A stretch of DNA of 64,000 nt from an uncultured delta proteobacterium (GTDB taxonomy: Bacteria > Myxococcota > Myxococcia > Myxococcales > Myxococcaceae). A program made the position numbers and the translations under genes. Of this stretch, positions 8,735 to 16,695 are shown one piece after another (position 1 is the first letter of the stretch; every line of letters begins with the position of its first letter). Under the pieces are notes generated by a model. That model did not search any database, was not told the DNA's origin, and was given only the letters and a program-made list of their open reading frames with translations. The stretch covers positions 448,001 through 512,000 of the forward strand of contig CAVZMH010000016.1 of the NCBI GenBank assembly GCA_963776345.1, written 5' to 3'.

Positions 8735-10117
8735 TCAGCGCCTCCCGCCGCCACCGCGCCCACCACCGCCCCGGCTCGCCGTGCCCCGGCTGCTGGCGGC
8801 GCGGGTCTGGGGCCCGCTGCCCATGCCGCCAAACGCCGGACCGGAAGGCGCGGGCTTCGCCGAGGGTGCGCCCCAGCCGCGGTCGCCGCCGCCGCCGCCG
8901 CCGCCGTAGCCGCCTCCCGGCGACGGGGGGGTGCTCGGCATCCCGGTCGACGGCCGCGGCCCTCCAGCTCCGGCGCCTGGAGCTCCGCCGCCCGCCGGAA
9001 GCTGGCTCGGCGCTGCGGGACCTCCCGGCCGGGCTCCGGGACTCCCCGCCCCGCCGCCCGCCGGAAGCTGGCTCGGCGTTCCGGGCCCTCCCGGCCGCGC
9101 TCCGGGGCCTCCCGGCCCCCCCGGACCTCCGACACCGCCAGGGCTTCCCGGCCCTCCGACTCCTCCGACTCCTCCCGGCCCTCCGACTCCTCCGGGTCCG
9201 CCCGGGCCTCCGACGCCGCCTGGCCCGCCGGGGCCCCCTGGGCCTCCGACACCTCCGGGCGGTCGTCCTCCCCCGCCTGGCGGACGCGGCGGGTACGGTG
9301 GCCGCGGCGGGTACGGCGGATAGGGCGGGTAGCGCCAGTAGCTCGACCCGATGGCGAACCCGATGCTGAAGCTCAGCACCGCGCCACCCATGGCGTACCC
9401 GGGCGGGTAGATCGGCGGCGGCGGGTACGCGGGGTACGCCCAGGTCCCGTAGACCACCGTCGGGCTGTAGACCGGCACGTAGACCACCTCGGGCTGCGCG
9501 GGCTCGATGCGGATGATGGTCGTGCCCTCGCTGCCTTGCGCCGCGGCCTGCTCGACCTTCACCGTCTGCTGCGACGAGGACTTGAGGTTCCCGGCCTCCA
9601 TGGCCCGGGCACGGAGCTGCTGGACGGCGAAGAGCACCGAGTCCTTCTGGGTCCGGTACGCGGTGCCGAGATCGCGCGCCCAGTCCTGGTGCTCGCTCAG
9701 CATCTTGAGGACGTCGGGGAGCGCGGAGAGCGCCTTCACGCTCCCGTCCCACGACTTGTCCTTCAGGGCCGCCTCCAGGTCCTTTCCCGACAGGCTGGGG
9801 TGCGCCTTGAGGAACGCCGCCGCGTCGGCGACCTCCTTCGGACGGAGCGACGCCTCGAGCACCTGCCCGAGCAACGGATCCGGGAAGAGCGCGATGGGCG
9901 AGACGATGGCCTCGAGCGCCTCGGGGGCGAACCCTCCCTCGGTGGCGGGGGGAGCAGCCGGCGCTGCGGACGGGCCCGGCGCCGGTGCTGCGGGAGCTGC
10001 CGGCGCGGGGGCAGGCGCCGCCGCTGCGGGCTGCGCCGTGCCCTGGGCCTGGCTCGCCGAGGAACCGGCGCATGCAGAGACCATCGAGGCGACGAGGAGG
10101 GACCGCCCGAGCGTCAT
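8735..10117 (-). CDS. DUF3300 domain protein with Gly/Pro-rich tail
   Basis: PIALFPDPLLGQVL, WDGSVKAL and VVYVPVYSP motifs; signal-like N-terminus from ATG 10117. Confidence 0.88.
   Translation of the reverse strand: MTLGRSLLVASMVSACAGSSASQAQGTAQPAAAAPAPAPAAPAAPAPGPSAAPAAPPATEGGFAPEALEAIVSPIALFPDPLLGQVLEASLRPKEVADAAAFLKAHPSLSGKDLEAALKDKSWDGSVKALSALPDVLKMLSEHQDWARDLGTAYRTQKDSVLFAVQQLRARAMEAGNLKSSSQQTVKVEQAAAQGSEGTTIIRIEPAQPEVVYVPVYSPTVVYGTWAYPAYPPPPIYPPGYAMGGAVLSFSIGFAIGSSYWRYPPYPPYPPRPPYPPRPPGGGGRPPGGVGGPGGPGGPGGVGGPGGPGGVGGPGGVGGVGGPGSPGGVGGPGGPGGPGARPGGPGTPSQLPAGGGAGSPGARPGGPAAPSQLPAGGGAPGAGAGGPRPSTGMPSTPPSPGGGYGGGGGGGDRGWGAPSAKPAPSGPAFGGMGSGPQTRAASSRGTASRGGGGRGGGGRR
8985..9260 (-). repeat. 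Intragenic tandem repeats (GGPGG/GGV units and a ~66-bp duplication encoding PSQLPAGGG)
   Basis: Visible in DNA (ccggaagctggctcggcg twice, 66 bp apart) and in the protein. Confidence 0.8.
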
Positions 10118-10205
10118 GGCCGCACTCTGCCAGGAACACCCCGGGGCGGGTCGACGAAGCACATGGGACCAAGGTGCAACACAGGGTCCCCGACCCCGAG
10201 CCGCC

Positions 10206-11093
10206 CTAGCGCGCGATGGCCACCCTCGGAGACGCGGGCGCCGCCTCCTGGACGCAGGCATGGTCCGCGTTGGACCACTGCTTCTGCAGCTGCCACCGGG
10301 TGCCGCCGAGGGCGACGCAGCTGCCGAACCTCCAGTTGCACTTGTCGGCGATCTCGTCCCCCGAGCGGTCCAGCCAGCCGTTCCCGTCCGGGTCAGTGAG
10401 CATCTCCATCACCTCGTGGGCCGTGACGTTGGCCAGCGCGCGCGTGGCCGGGCCGAGGCCGTTGCAGCGGAAGAGGTCTCCCGGATCGCACTGCGGCGCG
10501 CTGGCCATGTTCGGCAGGTAGGCCACGTGGATGCGGCGCCCGTCGGGACAGCGTCCGCCGTCGTGCCAGGCGCAGAAGTTCGACGGCTCGGGGAAGCCGT
10601 CGGTGAAGACCAGGTACAGCGCCGTCGGGCTCGGCACCTGGCGCGCGTCGGCCAGCACCTGGCACACCTTGGCCACGATCTCCTCCGTCGATGGCGAGTG
10701 GGTCGGCGAGGGCGAGGTCTCCATCAGGTGGCCGAGGAAGGTCGTCCGCGCCGGCCGGCGCACGTACTGGTCGACGATGGCCAGGTAGCGGGAGCCGTCC
10801 AGGCCGGAGAGGAAGGTGTCCATCCCCGACATCGCGTCGGCAGGGAACCGGGACGCGTCACCCCACCAGATGGCGTAGACGGGCGCCTCGGGGATGACGG
10901 CGCCCCCGAGGTCCTCGAGGTCGTCGGACGACCACCGCGCGGCGCCGGCCCGGCGGGTGGCCATGATCGACGTGTGGCCCGCGGGAGCGACCGGGGTCTC
11001 CGCGACGAGCGGCTCGCGGGGATCCCACCCCGCGGCGCCGAGACAGCCGCAGAGCCCGAGCGAGGCGACCAGGAGGTAGATGGAAGCGCGCAC
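10206..11093 (-). CDS. Lipoprotein with PHI-1/EXORDIUM-like domain
   Basis: Lipobox-like LGLCGC; motifs VYAIWWG, FCAWH, AHEVMEMLTDP, GW...EIADKC and LQKQWSN. Start set at GTG 11093. Confidence 0.7.
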   Translation of the reverse strand: MRASIYLLVASLGLCGCLGAAGWDPREPLVAETPVAPAGHTSIMATRRAGAARWSSDDLEDLGGAVIPEAPVYAIWWGDASRFPADAMSGMDTFLSGLDGSRYLAIVDQYVRRPARTTFLGHLMETSPSPTHSPSTEEIVAKVCQVLADARQVPSPTALYLVFTDGFPEPSNFCAWHDGGRCPDGRRIHVAYLPNMASAPQCDPGDLFRCNGLGPATRALANVTAHEVMEMLTDPDGNGWLDRSGDEIADKCNWRFGSCVALGGTRWQLQKQWSNADHACVQEAAPASPRVAIAR

Positions 11094-11229
11094 CGGACGG
11101 CCCTCCACGAGTGCTCTCCCCGGCCGGATCTCGACCCAGGGGCGCACCAGCGTCAAGGAGCAGCCCGCGGCCGGGCGTCGGACCGCCGGCGCCGACCGGT
11201 TGTGCAACGCTCCGGCGTCGCGAGGGGTC

Positions 11230-11541
11230 TCAGCCCTTCGCAGCGAGCACGTCGTGCTTCTCGATCCGCGGCGGCTCGGCCAGCAACTCCGGCGCCTTCG
11301 CCATCAGGGCGGCGGCGACGCGTCCAGAGAGATGCGCCTGTCGGCCCTCCTCCCCGGCGAAGGTGTCGAAGATGGCGAACGTCCGTCGGTCGAAGCGGAT
11401 CGCGTACCACTGCAAGGTGCCCGGCTCGTCCTGCACCAGCGCCAGGCCCGCGCGGAGGAAGTCCTCCACCGCGCGCTCCTTGCCCTCCTTCGCCACGAGC
11501 CGGACGAACAGCCCCATCTTCACGCTGGCCTGAGCTCCCAT
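11230..11541 (-). CDS. Antibiotic biosynthesis monooxygenase (ABM)/quinol monooxygenase family
   Basis: EPGTLQWYA, FAIFDTF and GRQAHL; about 100 aa; AAGGA RBS. Confidence 0.85.
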   Translation of the reverse strand: MGAQASVKMGLFVRLVAKEGKERAVEDFLRAGLALVQDEPGTLQWYAIRFDRRTFAIFDTFAGEEGRQAHLSGRVAAALMAKAPELLAEPPRIEKHDVLAAKG

Positions 11542-11710
11542 CGAGACGTTCCTTTCGACGCTGGCCACCGCAGGACGGACCAGCTTCTCAGGGAGATGCA
11601 CCACCGCCGTCCTCGTTGCAGGCGCGCGCGAGGGACGGCCACCCGGGGGCACGGCCGGCCGGGAATCCGGCCATCTGCAGCGCTCGGTGGTCGACAGGAA
11701 CTGCGGGGGC

Positions 11711-11986
11711 TCAGCGGAAGCCGGCCGGACACTCCCGGCGCACCAGGGCCTTGGCCTGCTCCTGGCTCGCCGGGCGGAAGCCGCGGCGCTGGTACTTCTC
11801 GAGCTCTTCCTCCGGGAACCTCACCACCATCCCCGCCGGGTCCACGGCGAAGTACATCGACTCGTACTTCTCCTTCGGACACGGCTCGGCGCCCTTGGTC
11901 TGCCCGGAGGCCTCCGAGCAGCCGGACAGCGGCAGCGCCGCGAGCGCAGCGAGGAGAACGAGCGAGCGACCTGGACGCGACGTCAT
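11711..11986 (-). CDS. Small hypothetical lipoprotein
   Basis: Lipobox LSGC after a hydrophobic stretch; two further Cys; charged, protein-like composition. Confidence 0.6.
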   Translation of the reverse strand: MTSRPGRSLVLLAALAALPLSGCSEASGQTKGAEPCPKEKYESMYFAVDPAGMVVRFPEEELEKYQRRGFRPASQEQAKALVRRECPAGFR

Positions 11987-12365
11987 GACCATCACCGAAG
12001 CGTACGGGGCCGCCCTGCTGTGCGTGCAACGGAGGGTCATGTCCGCCGCGGTCGTGGGTGCGCGCAGATCTGCGCGGGGTCGAGAAAGCACCACGGTCGA
12101 ACCGCGCCCTCGGATAAGAGGACCGGCTCTCTCCGGAGGTCTCCTCGCCGATGAAGCGCCGCGCCCGCCGGCGAGGCGCTGCCGCGCGGACCTCCATTCC
12201 CCCGCGGCGAACCGCGCCTTTCATGCAGGAAGCGGAGACGCGTGGAGCTGGACTCCAGCCAACGGGCTCGCCCGTGCAGCCGCGTTCCTCCGGATGCGCG
12301 ATGAGCGGACGTACAACGGCACATCACTCCGTCGCTGCGGCGGCACACGCCGCGGGAGATCTCCG

Positions 12366-13815
12366 ATGCGCGCTCGACATCTGCTTCCACCGCTGCTCCT
12401 GCTCCCGGCGCTGGCCCTCGCGGCCGAGGGTGCGCCGGCGACCGTCCCCATCACCACCTCCTCCCCCGAGGCCCGGGCCCTGTACCTCGAGGGCCGGGAT
12501 CTGGTGGAGCGCCTCAAGGGCACCGAGGGTCACCTCCGCACCGACCAGGCGGTGAAGAAGGACCCGCAGTTCGCCCTGGGGTGGCTGCAGTGGGCCCAGA
12601 CGGCGGGGACGGCCAAGGAGTTCTTCGCCGGGCTGGACAGGGCGGTGGCCGCTGCCGGCCACGCCACCGAGGGCGAGCAACTCCTGATCCGCGCGGTCGA
12701 GGCGGGCGCCAAGTCCCGTACCGCCGAGCAGAACCAGCTCCTGGCCACGCTGGCGAAGAAGTTCCCCTTGGATCCGCGGGTCCACGCCCAGATCGGAAAC
12801 GTGGCCTTCGGCGGCCAGGACTGGGACCGCGTCGTCCACGAAATGACCCGCGCGACCGAGCTCGACCCGAAGTTCACCCTCCCCTACAATCAGCTGGGCT
12901 ACGCCTACCGCTTCCAGGGCAAGTACGCGGAGGCCGAGAAGGCGTTCCAGAAGTACGCCGAGCTGCTCCCCGACGACCCGAACCCCCACGACTCCTACGC
13001 CGAGCTCCTGATGCGGATGGGCCGCTTCGACGACTCCATCTCCCGCTACCGGAAGGCGCTGCAGATCGACCCGCTCTTCCTCTCGGCCTACGTGGGCATC
13101 GCCAACGACCAGATCCTGCTCGGCAAGGGCGACGAGGCGCGGGGCACGCTGAAGCAGATGCTGGGCAAGGCACGGACGGACGGAGAGAGGCGCTTGACCT
13201 GGTTCTGGACCGCCGAGTCCTACATGCACGAGGAGCGCTGGACCGACGCCATCCGCAGCCTGGAGGAGGAGAAGAAGATCGCCGATGCCGCCGGTGACGT
13301 GATCTCGGCGTCCCAGGACGTGAACTTCATCGGGAACCTCCTCCTCGGGCGCGGGGAAGCCGGCCGACGCCGCGCGACGGTTCGAGGAGAGCGTCCGGAT
13401 GGCGGAGGGCTCGAAGGCCTCCGACGCCGTCAAGGACACCGCCCGCCGCGGGCACCTCTTCGACATGGCCCGCGTGGCGCTGCTGAAGGGCGACCTGACC
13501 ACGGCGCGGGCCACCGCCGCCAAGTACGCCGCGGCGGTCGAGGCGAAGGCGGTCCCCTTCGAGGTCCGGCAGTCGCACGAGCTGGCCGGGATGATCGCCG
13601 TCCAGGCGAAGGAGTGGGACGCCGCGCTGGCCGAGCTGGGCAAGGCGGGACAGCAAAACCCGCGGGTGCTCTACTTCACCGGCCTCGCCTGGCAGGGCAA
13701 GGGCGACTCGGCGAAGGCGACGGACGCCTTCCGTGCCGCCGCGGAGCTCAACCAGCTACACCCGGTCTACGGCTTCATCCGGCCGCAGGCGCGCCGGCAG
13801 CTCGCGCGGAGCTGA
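12366..13815 (+). CDS. Secreted TPR protein, split by a +1 frameshift at about 13347-13350
   Basis: GGGAG RBS, signal peptide and TTSSPEARALY followed by TPR helices. The frame of track ORF 9507..13955 turns to nonsense after NLLLG and the TPR pattern continues in the frame of ORF 13399..13815. Confidence 0.85.
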
Positions 13816-13878
13816 GCGCCACGGGCGGTCCCCGGATCGCTCGGCCGAGAGCGATCCGGGACCGACCCTCGACGAGGC

Positions 13879-14724
13879 TCAGGGCTTCTCGATCGGCGCG
13901 CCGATCAGGTTGCCGTACTCGGTCCAGCTGCCGTCGTAGTTCTTCACGTCCTTGAACCCGAGCAGGTACTTGAGGACGAACCAGGTGTGGCTGCTGCGCT
14001 CGCCGATCCGGCAGTAGGCGATGGTCGCCTTCTTCGGGTCGAGGCGCTTCTGGTCCAGGTAGATGGCCCGGAGCTCGTCGGCGCTCTTGAAGGTGTTCTC
14101 GTTGGTGACCGCGATGCTCCAGGGAATGCTGGTGGCGCCCGGGACATGCCCCCCGCGCTGGGCGGTCTCGGTCATCCCCGGCGGGGCGATGACCTTGCCG
14201 GTGAACTCGTCGGGGCTGCGGACGTCCACCAGCGGCGCCTTCTTCTCGCTCGCTGCGAGGACCTCCGGCACCTTGGCCCGGAGCGAAGTGTCCACCGAGG
14301 CCGCCTTGTACTGGCTGCGGGGGAACTTCTGGACCTCGGTGGTGAGCGGGGCGTTGTCCTCGTTCAGCCACTTGGCGCGCCCGCCGTTCAGCAGCCGGAC
14401 GTCCTTGTGCCCGTAGATCTTGTAGAGCCAGAACCCGTAGGCGGCGAACCAGTTGCTCGCGTCGCCGTAGATGACCACGGTGTCGGAGTTCTTGATGCCG
14501 GCCTCCGAGTTCAGCTTCTCGAAATCTTCCTTGGAGATGATGTCGCGCTTCACCTGGTCGTTGAGCTGGGTGGTCCAGTCCCAGCCCACCGCCCCGGCGA
14601 TGTGACCCGCGGCGTAGAGCTTCGGGTCCACGTCCACCTCGACGATGCGGACGTTGGGGGTCTTGAGGTTCTGCTTCAGCCAGTCGGTGGTGACGAGGAC
14701 CTCGGGATGTGCGTAGTCGGCCAT
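13879..14724 (-). CDS. Tandem-domain rhodanese / thiosulfate sulfurtransferase (SseA/CysA type)
   Basis: GHIAGA, DVRSPDEF, GGHVPGA, active loop YCRIGERSS and NYDGSWTEY; GAGAGGAG RBS. Confidence 0.95.
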   Translation of the reverse strand: MADYAHPEVLVTTDWLKQNLKTPNVRIVEVDVDPKLYAAGHIAGAVGWDWTTQLNDQVKRDIISKEDFEKLNSEAGIKNSDTVVIYGDASNWFAAYGFWLYKIYGHKDVRLLNGGRAKWLNEDNAPLTTEVQKFPRSQYKAASVDTSLRAKVPEVLAASEKKAPLVDVRSPDEFTGKVIAPPGMTETAQRGGHVPGATSIPWSIAVTNENTFKSADELRAIYLDQKRLDPKKATIAYCRIGERSSHTWFVLKYLLGFKDVKNYDGSWTEYGNLIGAPIEKP

Positions 14725-14763: not shown

Positions 14764-14862
14764 TCAGCCCCGGTGGCGGCGGCCGCGACAACAGATCGCA
14801 GCCCCGGACAGGGGTGCAGATCGGGTCGGCGGTCGGGCAGTCATGGGCTCACACACCTCCAT
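14764..14862 (-). CDS. Candidate intercistronic Cys-containing leader sORF (MEVCEPMTARPPTRSAPLSGAAICCRGRRHRG)
   Basis: ATG overlaps the cysteine synthase stop (TGATG). A second ATG at 14844 has GGAGG upstream. Contains tandem TGT TGT and ends 40 nt before the rhodanese start. Confidence 0.45.
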   Translation of the reverse strand: MEVCEPMTARPPTRSAPLSGAAICCRGRRHRG

Positions 14863-15827
14863 CACGGGTCCGCCTTCAGGCCGGGCACGTGCTTGAGCAT
14901 GTTGGATGCGTACTTGAAGACGTCGTCGCAGAAGATCATCACTCCGAAGGGGACCGGCCCCTTCCGGGCGATCCGCCGGGCGCCCTCGAAGATGAGGCCG
15001 GAGCTCGGGCCGGCGCGCAGCCCCTCGTGGCGGGCCAGCTCGGCGGCCACCCTGTATGCCAGCTCGAAGTCGATCTCGAGGATCTCGTCCACCAACTTCG
15101 GGTCGTAGAGCTGCGAGACGTCCAGCTCGGAGACGTTGCGGATGCCGGGCACGTCGTGTCCCGGGCTCGGCTGAACGGCGATCACCTTCACCGCCGGGTT
15201 CTTCGCCTTGAGGAACTTGCTGAGCCCCATCACCGTGCCACACGTACCGAGCGAGGTGAAGACGTGGGTCACCTTCCCTTGCGTCTGCCGCCAGATCTCG
15301 GGGCCGGTGGTGCGGACGTGGGCCTCGACGTTCTGGCGGTTGGCGTACTGGTTGGGCATCACGTAGCGGTCGGCCGAGGCCTTGGAGTGAGTCTTGGCCA
15401 GCCCGATGGTCCCGTCCTCGCTCCCCGGCAAGGGACAGAGCGCGTCGGGCACCACCTCGACCTGGGCCCCGAAGACTTGCAGGAGGACCTTCTTCTCCTC
15501 GGGGACCTTGGAGGGCACGACGGCGAGCATGGGATAGCCGCGGACGCCGGCCAGGGCGGTAAGGCTGAGGCCGGTGTTCCCGCTGGTGGGCTCGACGATG
15601 CCCCGGCCCGGCTTGCCAGGCCCCAGCTCGCCCCGCGCCTCGAGGTCCCGGATCATCGCCCAGGCGGCCCGGTCTTTCACCGAGCCGAAGGGGTTCATCC
15701 ACTCGAGCTTGGCCCAGAGCTGCGAGCCCTCCGGGACCAGCCGGTTGAGTCGGACGATGGGCGAGGGGTTCTCCTCGTCGGGGAGCATCTGGGTGATGTC
15801 GTCGTAAACGCGTGCGGAATGGTCCAT
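14862..15827 (-). CDS. PLP-dependent cysteine synthase (CysK/CysM family)
   Basis: NPFGSVKDR (PLP Lys), EPTSGNTG, NQY, GTCGT and GPSSG motifs. Confidence 0.93.
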   Translation of the reverse strand: MDHSARVYDDITQMLPDEENPSPIVRLNRLVPEGSQLWAKLEWMNPFGSVKDRAAWAMIRDLEARGELGPGKPGRGIVEPTSGNTGLSLTALAGVRGYPMLAVVPSKVPEEKKVLLQVFGAQVEVVPDALCPLPGSEDGTIGLAKTHSKASADRYVMPNQYANRQNVEAHVRTTGPEIWRQTQGKVTHVFTSLGTCGTVMGLSKFLKAKNPAVKVIAVQPSPGHDVPGIRNVSELDVSQLYDPKLVDEILEIDFELAYRVAAELARHEGLRAGPSSGLIFEGARRIARKGPVPFGVMIFCDDVFKYASNMLKHVPGLKADP

Positions 15828-15914
15828 CGGGCGGGTCCTCTAACGGGGAGGGGGCGGGGACGACAGCAGGGAGGCGAGAGCGGCGCGGGGGAACGCCCCC
15901 GGCTCGTCAACCTC

Positions 15915-15992
15915 TCAACGACAGCAACAACAGCGCGCCGGGGCCCGGCCGGTGCCCGGAAGGCTGCAGGCGCTGGCCGATGGACGCGGCAC
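15915..15992 (-). CDS. Candidate polycysteine leader peptide (MPRPSASACSLPGTGRAPARCCCCR)
   Basis: Four consecutive Cys codons TGT TGT TGC TGT (15932-15921) just before the stop, 88 nt upstream of cysteine synthase. GTG 15992 is 9 nt after TACCGT. A longer alternative start is at 16100. Confidence 0.65.
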   Translation of the reverse strand: MPRPSASACSLPGTGRAPARCCCCR

Positions 15993-16149
15993 GGTCCGCG
16001 GACGGTAACGCCCTCCCCCGGCGGACGCCAGCGCCGCCCAGGCGTCCCGTCCAGCGGGGCTGCTCTTCTCCGCTGCCTGCTTCTTGCAGCACTCCCCCAC
16101 GCTGACCGCAGTGTCGCGAGGGATTTCGATGGGTTCGGGATCGAGAAGG

Positions 16150-16695
16150 ATGGGTCAACTGGGGTCGCTGCTGTTGCTCGCGACCCTCCTCCCTGGAACC
16201 ACGGCGTGGGCCCAGGGCACCGTGTGTCACCGCGTCTGGGTGGAGGTGCGGGACAACGATCTGATGGGCAACTCGGAGATGACCGCGCCGCCCCGCACCC
16301 GGTACCCGGGCAAGTTCTGCTTCATCGTCTACGACCGGCGGACGGCGCGCTTCTCGCTCGAGCCCGACGACTCGTCGGCCAAACCCTTCGCCTCGCTGGT
16401 GCTGCGGAGGGGCCGGCATGCCGCCGCGTCCAATCTCGTGAGCTACGGGCGCTCGTCGCCGGACTACGACGAGGACCGGATCCGCGGCCGGAACGACTTC
16501 CTGTACCTCCGCACCTACGCCAACGGTGAGCGGCATTACGGCGCGACGGTCACCGACCTGACCGGACGGGTGACGCTCAGCTGGAGCGCCAGCCTGAGCC
16601 CGAAGGGCCCCCGGCTGGACGAGGTGCCTCCGCCGAAGGGCGCAACGCAGGTGGCTTCGAGCCCCCCTCACCGGCAGCCTCCCGGGCCTCAGTAG
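16150..16695 (+). CDS. Hypothetical secreted protein
   Basis: Signal peptide ending AWA; beta-rich mature part; no family recognised. Confidence 0.6.
   Translation: MGQLGSLLLLATLLPGTTAWAQGTVCHRVWVEVRDNDLMGNSEMTAPPRTRYPGKFCFIVYDRRTARFSLEPDDSSAKPFASLVLRRGRHAAASNLVSYGRSSPDYDEDRIRGRNDFLYLRTYANGERHYGATVTDLTGRVTLSWSASLSPKGPRLDEVPPPKGATQVASSPPHRQPPGPQ

Follow-up and report, generated by a model that had tools for sequence, protein, structure and literature searches.

The trp, his, leu, and thr attenuators carry codons for the amino acid of their own pathway in a leader reading frame, and the position of the ribosome on that frame decides the fate of the mRNA. Here we describe a candidate cysteine-responsive leader in a stretch of 64,000 nucleotides (nt) from an uncultured delta proteobacterium of the Myxococcaceae (assembly GCA_963776345.1, contig CAVZMH010000016.1, positions 448,001–512,000; the whole stretch is referred to below as the window). 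The element is a small open reading frame (sORF) of 25 codons that ends in four Cys codons and lies upstream of an operon encoding a CysM-like protein of the cysteine synthase family and a rhodanese.

The closest described systems are those of mycobacteria. According to the accessible text of the preprint by Canestrari et al. (bioRxiv 10.1101/834739; listed as Mol Microbiol 2020;114:93-108 in the references of PMC13236596), Ms5788A is a leaderless sORF of 90 nt, started by GUG and separated by a 97-nt spacer from an operon that includes a gene for a thiosulfate sulfurtransferase. Its Cys tract pairs with the Shine-Dalgarno (SD) region, and stalled ribosomes block this duplex. The same text reports six cysteine-responsive loci in mycobacteria, with the mechanism at the other loci left open by the authors (bioRxiv 10.1101/834739). 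Leader peptides with Cys runs and without terminators had been predicted in 2005 for Mycobacterium, P. acnes, and B. longum, with a suggested involvement of Rho, as given in the accessible part of PMC1262725. Also related, from what the accessible text of PMC8632094 describes, is the uORFC-8-2 motif found 5' of cysS in Rhodobacterales, a candidate for ribosome-mediated attenuation that would sense Cys through tandem Cys codons. In the full-text literature, no such leaders were found described for Myxococcota or Planctomycetota; subscription journals and unopened supplements may hold some.

We consider it likely that the 25-codon frame senses cysteine by way of the ribosome and thereby controls the CysM-like/rhodanese operon. 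The sequences directly show the features of the locus, how well these are conserved, and that they recur. We infer the sensing step from the anatomy of the locus, its recurrence, and the mycobacterial precedent; the transcription start, the translation of the sORF, the stalling of ribosomes, and all of the output steps are inferred as well. The first-pass annotation of the window had already proposed a polycysteine leader that senses cysteine for this operon through ribosome stalling. Comparison with other genomes lends strong support to this proposal because the frame and the Cys run are kept in the genus (in frame in 10 of 11 genomes), homologous leaders are present in a sister clade (7 of 7 loci), independent Cys runs precede the gene in Planctomycetota (12 of 23 loci), and a second leader with Cys runs precedes metY.

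Anatomy of the leader and its conservation in the genus

All features of the leader and of the operon are on the minus strand. Those on which the sensing step depends are the following:

16026..16031, minus strand: -35-like hexamer CTGGCG (sequence reading), 18 nt 5' of the -10-like box; TTGGCA or CTGGCA among relatives
16002..16007, minus strand: -10-like box TACCGT (TANNNT), with a 9-nt spacer before the GTG; putative promoter of a leaderless transcript; position relative to the GTG kept at 11 of 11 genus loci
15915..15992, minus strand: leader sORF, 25 codons plus stop, MPRPSASACSLPGTGRAPARCCCCR; GTG at 15992..15990 and TGA at 15917..15915
15921..15932, minus strand: Cys run TGT TGT TGC TGT, codons 21–24, the proposed stalling site; followed by CGT TGA
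14862..15827, minus strand: gene for a CysM-like protein of the cysteine synthase family, 321 amino acids (aa); PALP domain, E 2.3e-60
13879..14724, minus strand: gene for a two-domain rhodanese (sulfurtransferase), second in the operon; Rhodanese domain, E 1.2e-32

The 3' end of the sORF reads CGC TGT TGT TGC TGT CGT TGA, so that the peptide ends in CCCCR (RCCCCR with the preceding Arg), with the codons as they had been annotated before the cysteine synthase-rhodanese operon. The closeness of the frame to the cysteine synthase gene also stood, with a correction of the distance: 87 nt, and not 88, separate the sORF stop from the cysM-like ATG (15827). The arrangement TACCGT-N9-GTG is present as previously noticed, with the box at 16007..16002 and the 9-nt spacer after it, and no SD sequence occurs at a proper distance before the GTG of the sORF. 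A leaderless start of the sORF is suggested by a single feature, the conserved TANNNT box 7–9 nt before the GTG, from which the transcription start is placed.

The codons of the run are unusual for this genome. In 2,322 long open reading frames (ORFs) of the source genome with high GC content at third codon positions, TGT occurs 988 times and TGC 9809 times, so that TGT accounts for 9.2% of Cys codons and is indeed disfavored, as had been assumed. In the leader run it provides three of the four codons here, and 35 of 43 over the 11 genus members (hand count). One tRNA-Cys was found (ARAGORN), and its anticodon is GCA; TGT would therefore be decoded by wobble.

From this anatomy, sensing would proceed in the following way. 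The transcript would begin with the GTG or very close to it, as a leaderless mRNA. When charged tRNA-Cys is plentiful, the ribosome would pass the rare TGT codons and be released at the TGA, and the leader would fold. A shortage of charged tRNA-Cys would make ribosomes stall on the Cys run, so that the leader stays open and the expression of the operon rises.

The genus set consisted of 11 genomes, namely the source genome and ten congeners with the orthologous gene (CysM identity of 91–94%). The close relatives are titled Myxococcaceae metagenome-assembled genomes (MAGs), which agrees with the earlier assignment of the DNA to a myxobacterium, and the genus is uncultured. The leader is retained in all ten of the other congeners. 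The Cys run and the TGA are kept in 11 of the 11 genomes, and the sole differences within the run are exchanges between TGT and TGC. The absence of a conserved Cys run in relatives had been named beforehand as a finding that would speak against the leader, and in this comparison the inference was not refuted. In 10 of the 11 genomes the run (3–4 Cys codons), the Arg, and the TGA share one frame with the GTG despite indels of 3 nt in the variable middle part, giving sORFs of 25–26 codons. Upstream, TACCGT, TAGCGT, or TACGGT is found 7–9 nt before the GTG at all 11 loci, and the TGGC of the -35-like hexamer is invariant in the 11-genome alignment.

The conserved CCCC-R ending, the Arg that follows Cys runs also in other phyla, and the fact that the sORF would be co-transcribed with sulfur-transfer enzymes could be taken to mean that its product is a functional small Cys-rich peptide, for example a metal- or sulfur-binding one, which is co-expressed with the sulfur enzymes and is no regulatory leader. 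We regard such a peptide as most improbable. The stretch that links the N-terminal block to the Cys run varies freely in both its sequence and its length, third positions show no surplus of changes in the conserved N-terminal part, and the number and spacing of Cys residues differ among clades. In addition, the use of the rare TGT fits slow decoding and not efficient production of a peptide.

A longer frame starting from a GTG at 16100 (61 aa, beginning MGECC) was considered and dropped. Its 5' part, including a TGC TGC pair, is not kept among congeners, and it spans the conserved -10 box.

Recurrence in other clades and before metY

The next closest loci belong to a sister clade of Myxococcaceae (labeled "Myxococcaceae" or "delta proteobacterium"), whose CysM proteins are 76–79% identical. 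All seven of its loci carry a GTG-started sORF of 27–33 codons with endings of the CC-R-CC type, such as CCRCCR, and with no run of three Cys; a TANNNT box is found 9–14 nt 5' of the sORF. These leaders and those of the genus are considered homologous because a SAS..LP stretch is common to both. Just 3' of the sORF stop, the sister-clade loci (L045–L049, L051, and L054) share CTGAACCGTTC, which holds the palindrome GAAC-C-GTTC, and GCATCT, both invariant or nearly so. As the genus has no counterpart of these blocks, they suggest that the sister clade has a different output element.

Farther away, among the loci labeled Planctomycetota (mostly Phycisphaerae, with the gene 61–74% identical), 12 of 23 have an upstream sORF with 3–6 consecutive Cys codons (hand count from titles). 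Several of these sORFs are located behind TTGACT-N17-(-10 box)-N7-9-ATG, which is the geometry of a leaderless start. At the Planctomycetota loci L056–L094, leaderless-looking sORFs such as MVSGVFQACCCCCRA and MATCCQPDCCC, each followed directly by the stop codon, are located before the CysM-like gene in many Phycisphaerae. No upstream Cys run was seen in the eight Verrucomicrobiota-labeled loci, in the six Acidobacteriaceae/Acidobacteriota loci of the 61–68% identity group, or among the loci of ~45–48% identity.

To place these counts, runs of at least three Cys codons within 450 nt upstream of the gene were scored at 79 loci. They occurred at 20 loci in the sense direction and at 7 in the antisense direction, against 2 in the interval from -900 to -450 and about 1 in each mononucleotide shuffle. 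A control with reversed sequences lacks independence, as TGT is the same in both directions. A looser criterion (3 Cys in 8 codons) matched 14 of 41 loci outside the leader-rich clade, and was too noisy to be used for counts.

The distribution of the leaders was also compared with a tree of 78 CysM-like proteins from a quick maximum-likelihood search (midpoint root; labels typed by hand), which excludes L096, a sequence that was too short, and the fragment L101. Both Myxococcaceae clades nest inside a group of 34 rows, the rest of which are of the Phycisphaerae type with the addition of one Gemmatimonadales-labeled row. Leaders, counted as runs or CC-R-CC endings, are present in 24 of the 34 rows inside this group versus 3 of the 44 outside. 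Branch supports are modest (82–91 in the Shimodaira-Hasegawa-like approximate likelihood ratio test, SH-aLRT). That the CysM-like gene and its leader travel together, possibly by horizontal transfer, is for now only a lead.

A second polycysteine sORF was found in the genome:

G000 contig C18, ~126004–126114 in plus-strand coordinates (L119:2005–2115, minus strand): sORF of 36 codons ending in ECCCRCCC, ~215 nt before metY

Its geometry, TTGACA-N18-TACCGT-N8-GTG, includes the same TACCGT box. The gene metY encodes an O-acetylhomoserine sulfhydrylase and is followed by metX and by a gene for a bifunctional aspartokinase/homoserine dehydrogenase (all named from their translations). This leader is retained in 12 of 13 genus genomes with 3–6 Cys codons, and several Met codons are also present in it.

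A genome-wide search for Cys-rich sORFs, defined by four or more Cys among the final 10 or 12 codons, gave 50 and 90 matches, respectively, among which inspection recognized only these two Cys-run sORFs as seemingly intergenic and in the sense orientation, each of them before a sulfur amino-acid operon. The remaining inspected candidates were dropped, as they appeared to be coding DNA read off-frame or in antisense, and the genome-wide scans revealed no third convincing locus with a Cys-run leader. The string (TGY)4 by itself is not enriched in the genome, with 16 matches versus 36 for the reversed control pattern.

Predicted RNA structure and the output step

The features considered for the step between stalling and expression of the operon are the following:

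15977..15984, minus strand: leader block UCCAUCGG (leader nt 9–16), predicted 5' strand of the long-range helix P1 (RNAalifold)
15823..15830, minus strand: CCGAUGGA, the cysM start-codon region, predicted 3' strand of P1; perfect complement, over 8 base pairs (bp), of 15984..15977
15870..15912, minus strand: hairpin P3 after the stop, with lower stem UGACGAGC and GCUCUCG and upper part CCGGGGG-CGUU-CCCCCGG; no U tail
15833..15892, minus strand: C-rich, G-poor tract, 34 C and 12 G in 60 nt; candidate Rho-loading region (composition)
15836..15841, minus strand: SD-like AGAGGA, 8 nt 5' of the cysM ATG (sequence reading)

Conservation in the leader alignment is highest in two 8-nt windows that fall on the predicted partners of P1, and the CCG before the cysM ATG is invariant in 11 of the 11 sequences. 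In the consensus fold, leader nt 17–30 pair with the Cys run and with the Arg and stop codons. Partition-function folds left the cysM start region mostly paired in 8 of the 11 orthologues (probability of being unpaired 0.05–0.22), and it opened (0.40–0.66) only when the 5' nucleotides were blocked.

The best conserved part of the leader, nt 9–22, shows conservation values of 0.884, 0.884, and 0.893 at codon positions 1, 2, and 3. Since third positions are equally conserved, the constraint on this 5' block appears to be on nucleotides and not on the peptide. Such conservation at the nucleotide level, without codon periodicity, would also suit an element bound by a protein or a ligand, for example a structured RNA or, at +10..+25, an operator in the DNA, in which case the Cys run would be a by-product and give no ribosomal signal. 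The TGT/TGC changes in the run also fit G-U/G-C exchanges of the predicted helices, and the leader DNA contains the short inverted repeats CTGGC...GCCAG and CCATCGG...CCGATGG. Nevertheless, we find a binding element improbable. An Rfam scan of 15600..16400 returned four matches, all far below their gathering scores (best E 0.13), and thus no known RNA family; moreover, indels have left the GTG and the Cys run in one frame in 10 of the 11 genomes. Leaders of unrelated sequence, in the Planctomycetota orthologues and before metY here, also end in Cys runs, and a pure nucleic-acid motif would leave this recurrence unexplained.

For the ribosome-based sensor, our tentative proposal is that the output is a translational clamp on the cysM start codon, possibly reinforced by Rho, although we would not call this probable. 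The block UCCAUCGG would pair with CCGAUGGA over the start codon, and this pairing would be blocked only while stalled and queued ribosomes fill the 5' part of the frame. The untranslated cysM RNA, with its C-rich spacer, would in addition be exposed to Rho.

Other helices were also evaluated. The GGGGG/CCCCC hairpin reported in the first-pass annotation exists as the upper part of P3, and P3 alone among the helices shows compensatory changes: both sides are altered in two of its pairs, of which one appears as GC, CG, and AU. A hairpin over the stop codon, also proposed there, can form (84% of cells paired) but lacks comparative support: covariation is absent, and of its seven pairs one is broken in 4 and another in 8 of the 11 sequences. 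This hairpin (nt 75–92) competes with helix P2 and with the lower stem of P3, and there is no terminator for it to oppose. At the SD-like site of cysM, a possible local CCUC/GAGG pairing (helix 9) has 86% of cells paired and likewise no covariation.

Several results weigh against the proposed sensor and its clamp. With regard to the leaderless transcript, a strict sigma-70 scan of 15700..16250 called no promoter, and the promoter hexamers are weak when compared with the Escherichia coli consensus. Metatranscriptome contigs from four runs are short fragments of relatives (90–95% alike) that lie mostly within cysM, and are uninformative on the start site and on co-transcription. With regard to the frame, the congener G009 (L003, G009:C717; an assembly of 760 contigs) retains both the run and the TGA, but shifted by one base from the frame of the GTG, which may reflect an assembly or sequencing error in a fragmented MAG, or a real loss. 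With regard to the structure, a single ribosome stalled on the Cys run leaves P1 closed in the model; the queue of ribosomes is therefore an added assumption, as the opening of P1 needs the 5' end to be occupied. Compensatory changes are absent from P1, and one congener (G004) loses three of its pairs. Covariation is weak overall, with 3 of 47 pairs changing on both sides, and the minimum free energy of the leader equals that of shuffled sequences (z = 0.01). In the sister clade no comparable long-range helix was found, nor anything in common beyond a local helix, so that P1 would be specific to the genus. Finally, the Cys tract here is not predicted to pair with the SD sequence as it does in the accessible account of Ms5788A, and it is the 5' block of the sORF that complements the start-codon region instead. 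Because the predicted pairing differs in this way, this feature, by which the Ms5788A mechanism is defined, is missing from the predicted fold.

The same sensor could have a Rho-dependent output, in which Rho would load on the C-rich spacer and end transcription before or early in cysM, and stalling would prevent this through refolding of the leader. The C-rich, G-poor tract seen in the first reading of the sequence is real: its 34 C and 12 G place it in the top 0.04% of ~1.02 million genome windows, the region is C-rich in all 11 orthologues, and a Rho gene is present in the genome. A terminator scan found no U-tailed terminator on the minus strand, in agreement with the earlier reading, and this favors a Rho output; Rho was also proposed for the terminator-less Cys leaders of Actinobacteria, according to the accessible part of PMC1262725. 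Even so, we rate Rho as the main output slightly below the clamp. A ribosome stalled at codons 21–24 would cover the RNA to about nt 85, and the C-rich tract begins at about nt 101, some 15 nt beyond; stalling alone would not hide the tract, since it starts past the edge of the ribosome. Uncoupling usually favors Rho, C-richness by itself does not demonstrate Rho binding, and no alternative pairing conserved among relatives was found that would sequester the tract upon stalling.

A more far-reaching version of the clamp joins it to the phylogeny of the gene. The CysM-like gene and its leader would be a self-regulating cassette that moved between Planctomycetota (Phycisphaerae) and Myxococcaceae, and the switch of the genus would work as a ruler of queued ribosomes that opens the 8-bp clamp between the 5' end and the cysM start, a mechanism unlike the mycobacterial duplex of Cys tract and SD. 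We consider this combination unlikely as it stands.

Regarding the genes controlled, CysM is the top NCBIfam match of the 321-aa protein, and its closest solved structures are those of CysM, or O-acetylserine sulfhydrylase B. The name is kept as "CysM-like" because the NCBIfam score, 248 bits, is under the curated cut-off of 413. The rhodanese protein resembles 3-mercaptopyruvate sulfurtransferase, also with a score under the cut-off. A plus-strand ORF of 1,482 aa (9507–13955) converges on the rhodanese gene (13879–14724, minus strand) and overlaps its 3' end by ~77 nt with the ends as listed.

On the other side, the leader is located within a divergent intergenic region of ~300 nt, as the upstream gene runs the opposite way from an ATG at 16129 or 16150. 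This gene (16129/16150–16695, plus strand) encodes a secreted-looking protein of ~181–188 aa whose N-terminus resembles a signal peptide and which matches no Pfam or NCBIfam family. As with cysM, the sequence around its start (CGATGG) is complementary to CCAUCG, a conserved part of the leader. A conserved block, TCTGCAAGAAGCAGGCAGCAGAGAAGA (minus-strand reading), lies at 16052–16100 between the divergent genes and contains a short inverted repeat, which reads TCTGC...GCAGA in relatives. The plus strand has a terminator-like hairpin at 16052–16075, followed by a T-rich tail, just 5' of the divergent gene. The 16052–16100 block may be a regulatory element of that gene.

Comparison with described leaders

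If the proposed sensor is real, ribosome-based sensing of cysteine would extend beyond the range in which it was experimentally shown (mycobacteria) or predicted (Actinobacteria), to Myxococcota and Planctomycetota. It would suggest a widespread and recurrent control of sulfur amino-acid genes that needs no dedicated regulator. Two unannotated genes would also be marked in this genome, with a hint of a regulatory use of leaderless translation in these phyla. The 180-nt locus itself would be a compact case of a leader that works without a terminator or a duplex between Cys tract and SD.

Unlike in the classical attenuators, neither a U-tract terminator nor a terminator/antiterminator pair was found in this leader. 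It resembles Rho-dependent leader attenuators of the tna-like type in having a C-rich, G-poor region after the leader ORF, a likeness that concerns composition only. The uORFC-8-2 motif, as the accessible text of PMC8632094 presents it, consists of an AUG-started upstream ORF with two Cys codons, mostly UGC, and an intrinsic terminator with a U run, and it controls a cysteinyl-tRNA synthetase; the present leader has four Cys codons with UGU predominating, shows no terminator, and precedes biosynthetic genes.

Closer in kind are the leaders predicted in 2005. As far as the accessible part of PMC1262725 describes them, they too are short ORFs with Cys runs near the stop and no conserved terminator hairpin. 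Unlike the present case, they were limited to Actinobacteria and were identified by comparison, and a leaderless geometry was not considered there.

The nearest parallels are the polycysteine leaderless sORFs of mycobacteria, such as Ms5788A and Rv2334A of the "Cys ribulon", again within the accessible text on them. The differences are that the run has four Cys codons here versus eight there, and that the present leader belongs to the phylum Myxococcota, has parallels in Planctomycetota, and is known from its sequence alone. In common with the mycobacterial sORFs, it is a short GUG-started frame at what would be the 5' end of the mRNA, with the Cys run at its 3' end. As in the Cys ribulon, there are several leaders per genome (here, those of the cysM-like gene and of metY) and no U-tailed terminator. 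With Ms5788A in particular it shares a spacer of ~90 nt (87 here and 97 there) and a downstream sulfur/cysteine operon that includes a rhodanese-type sulfurtransferase.

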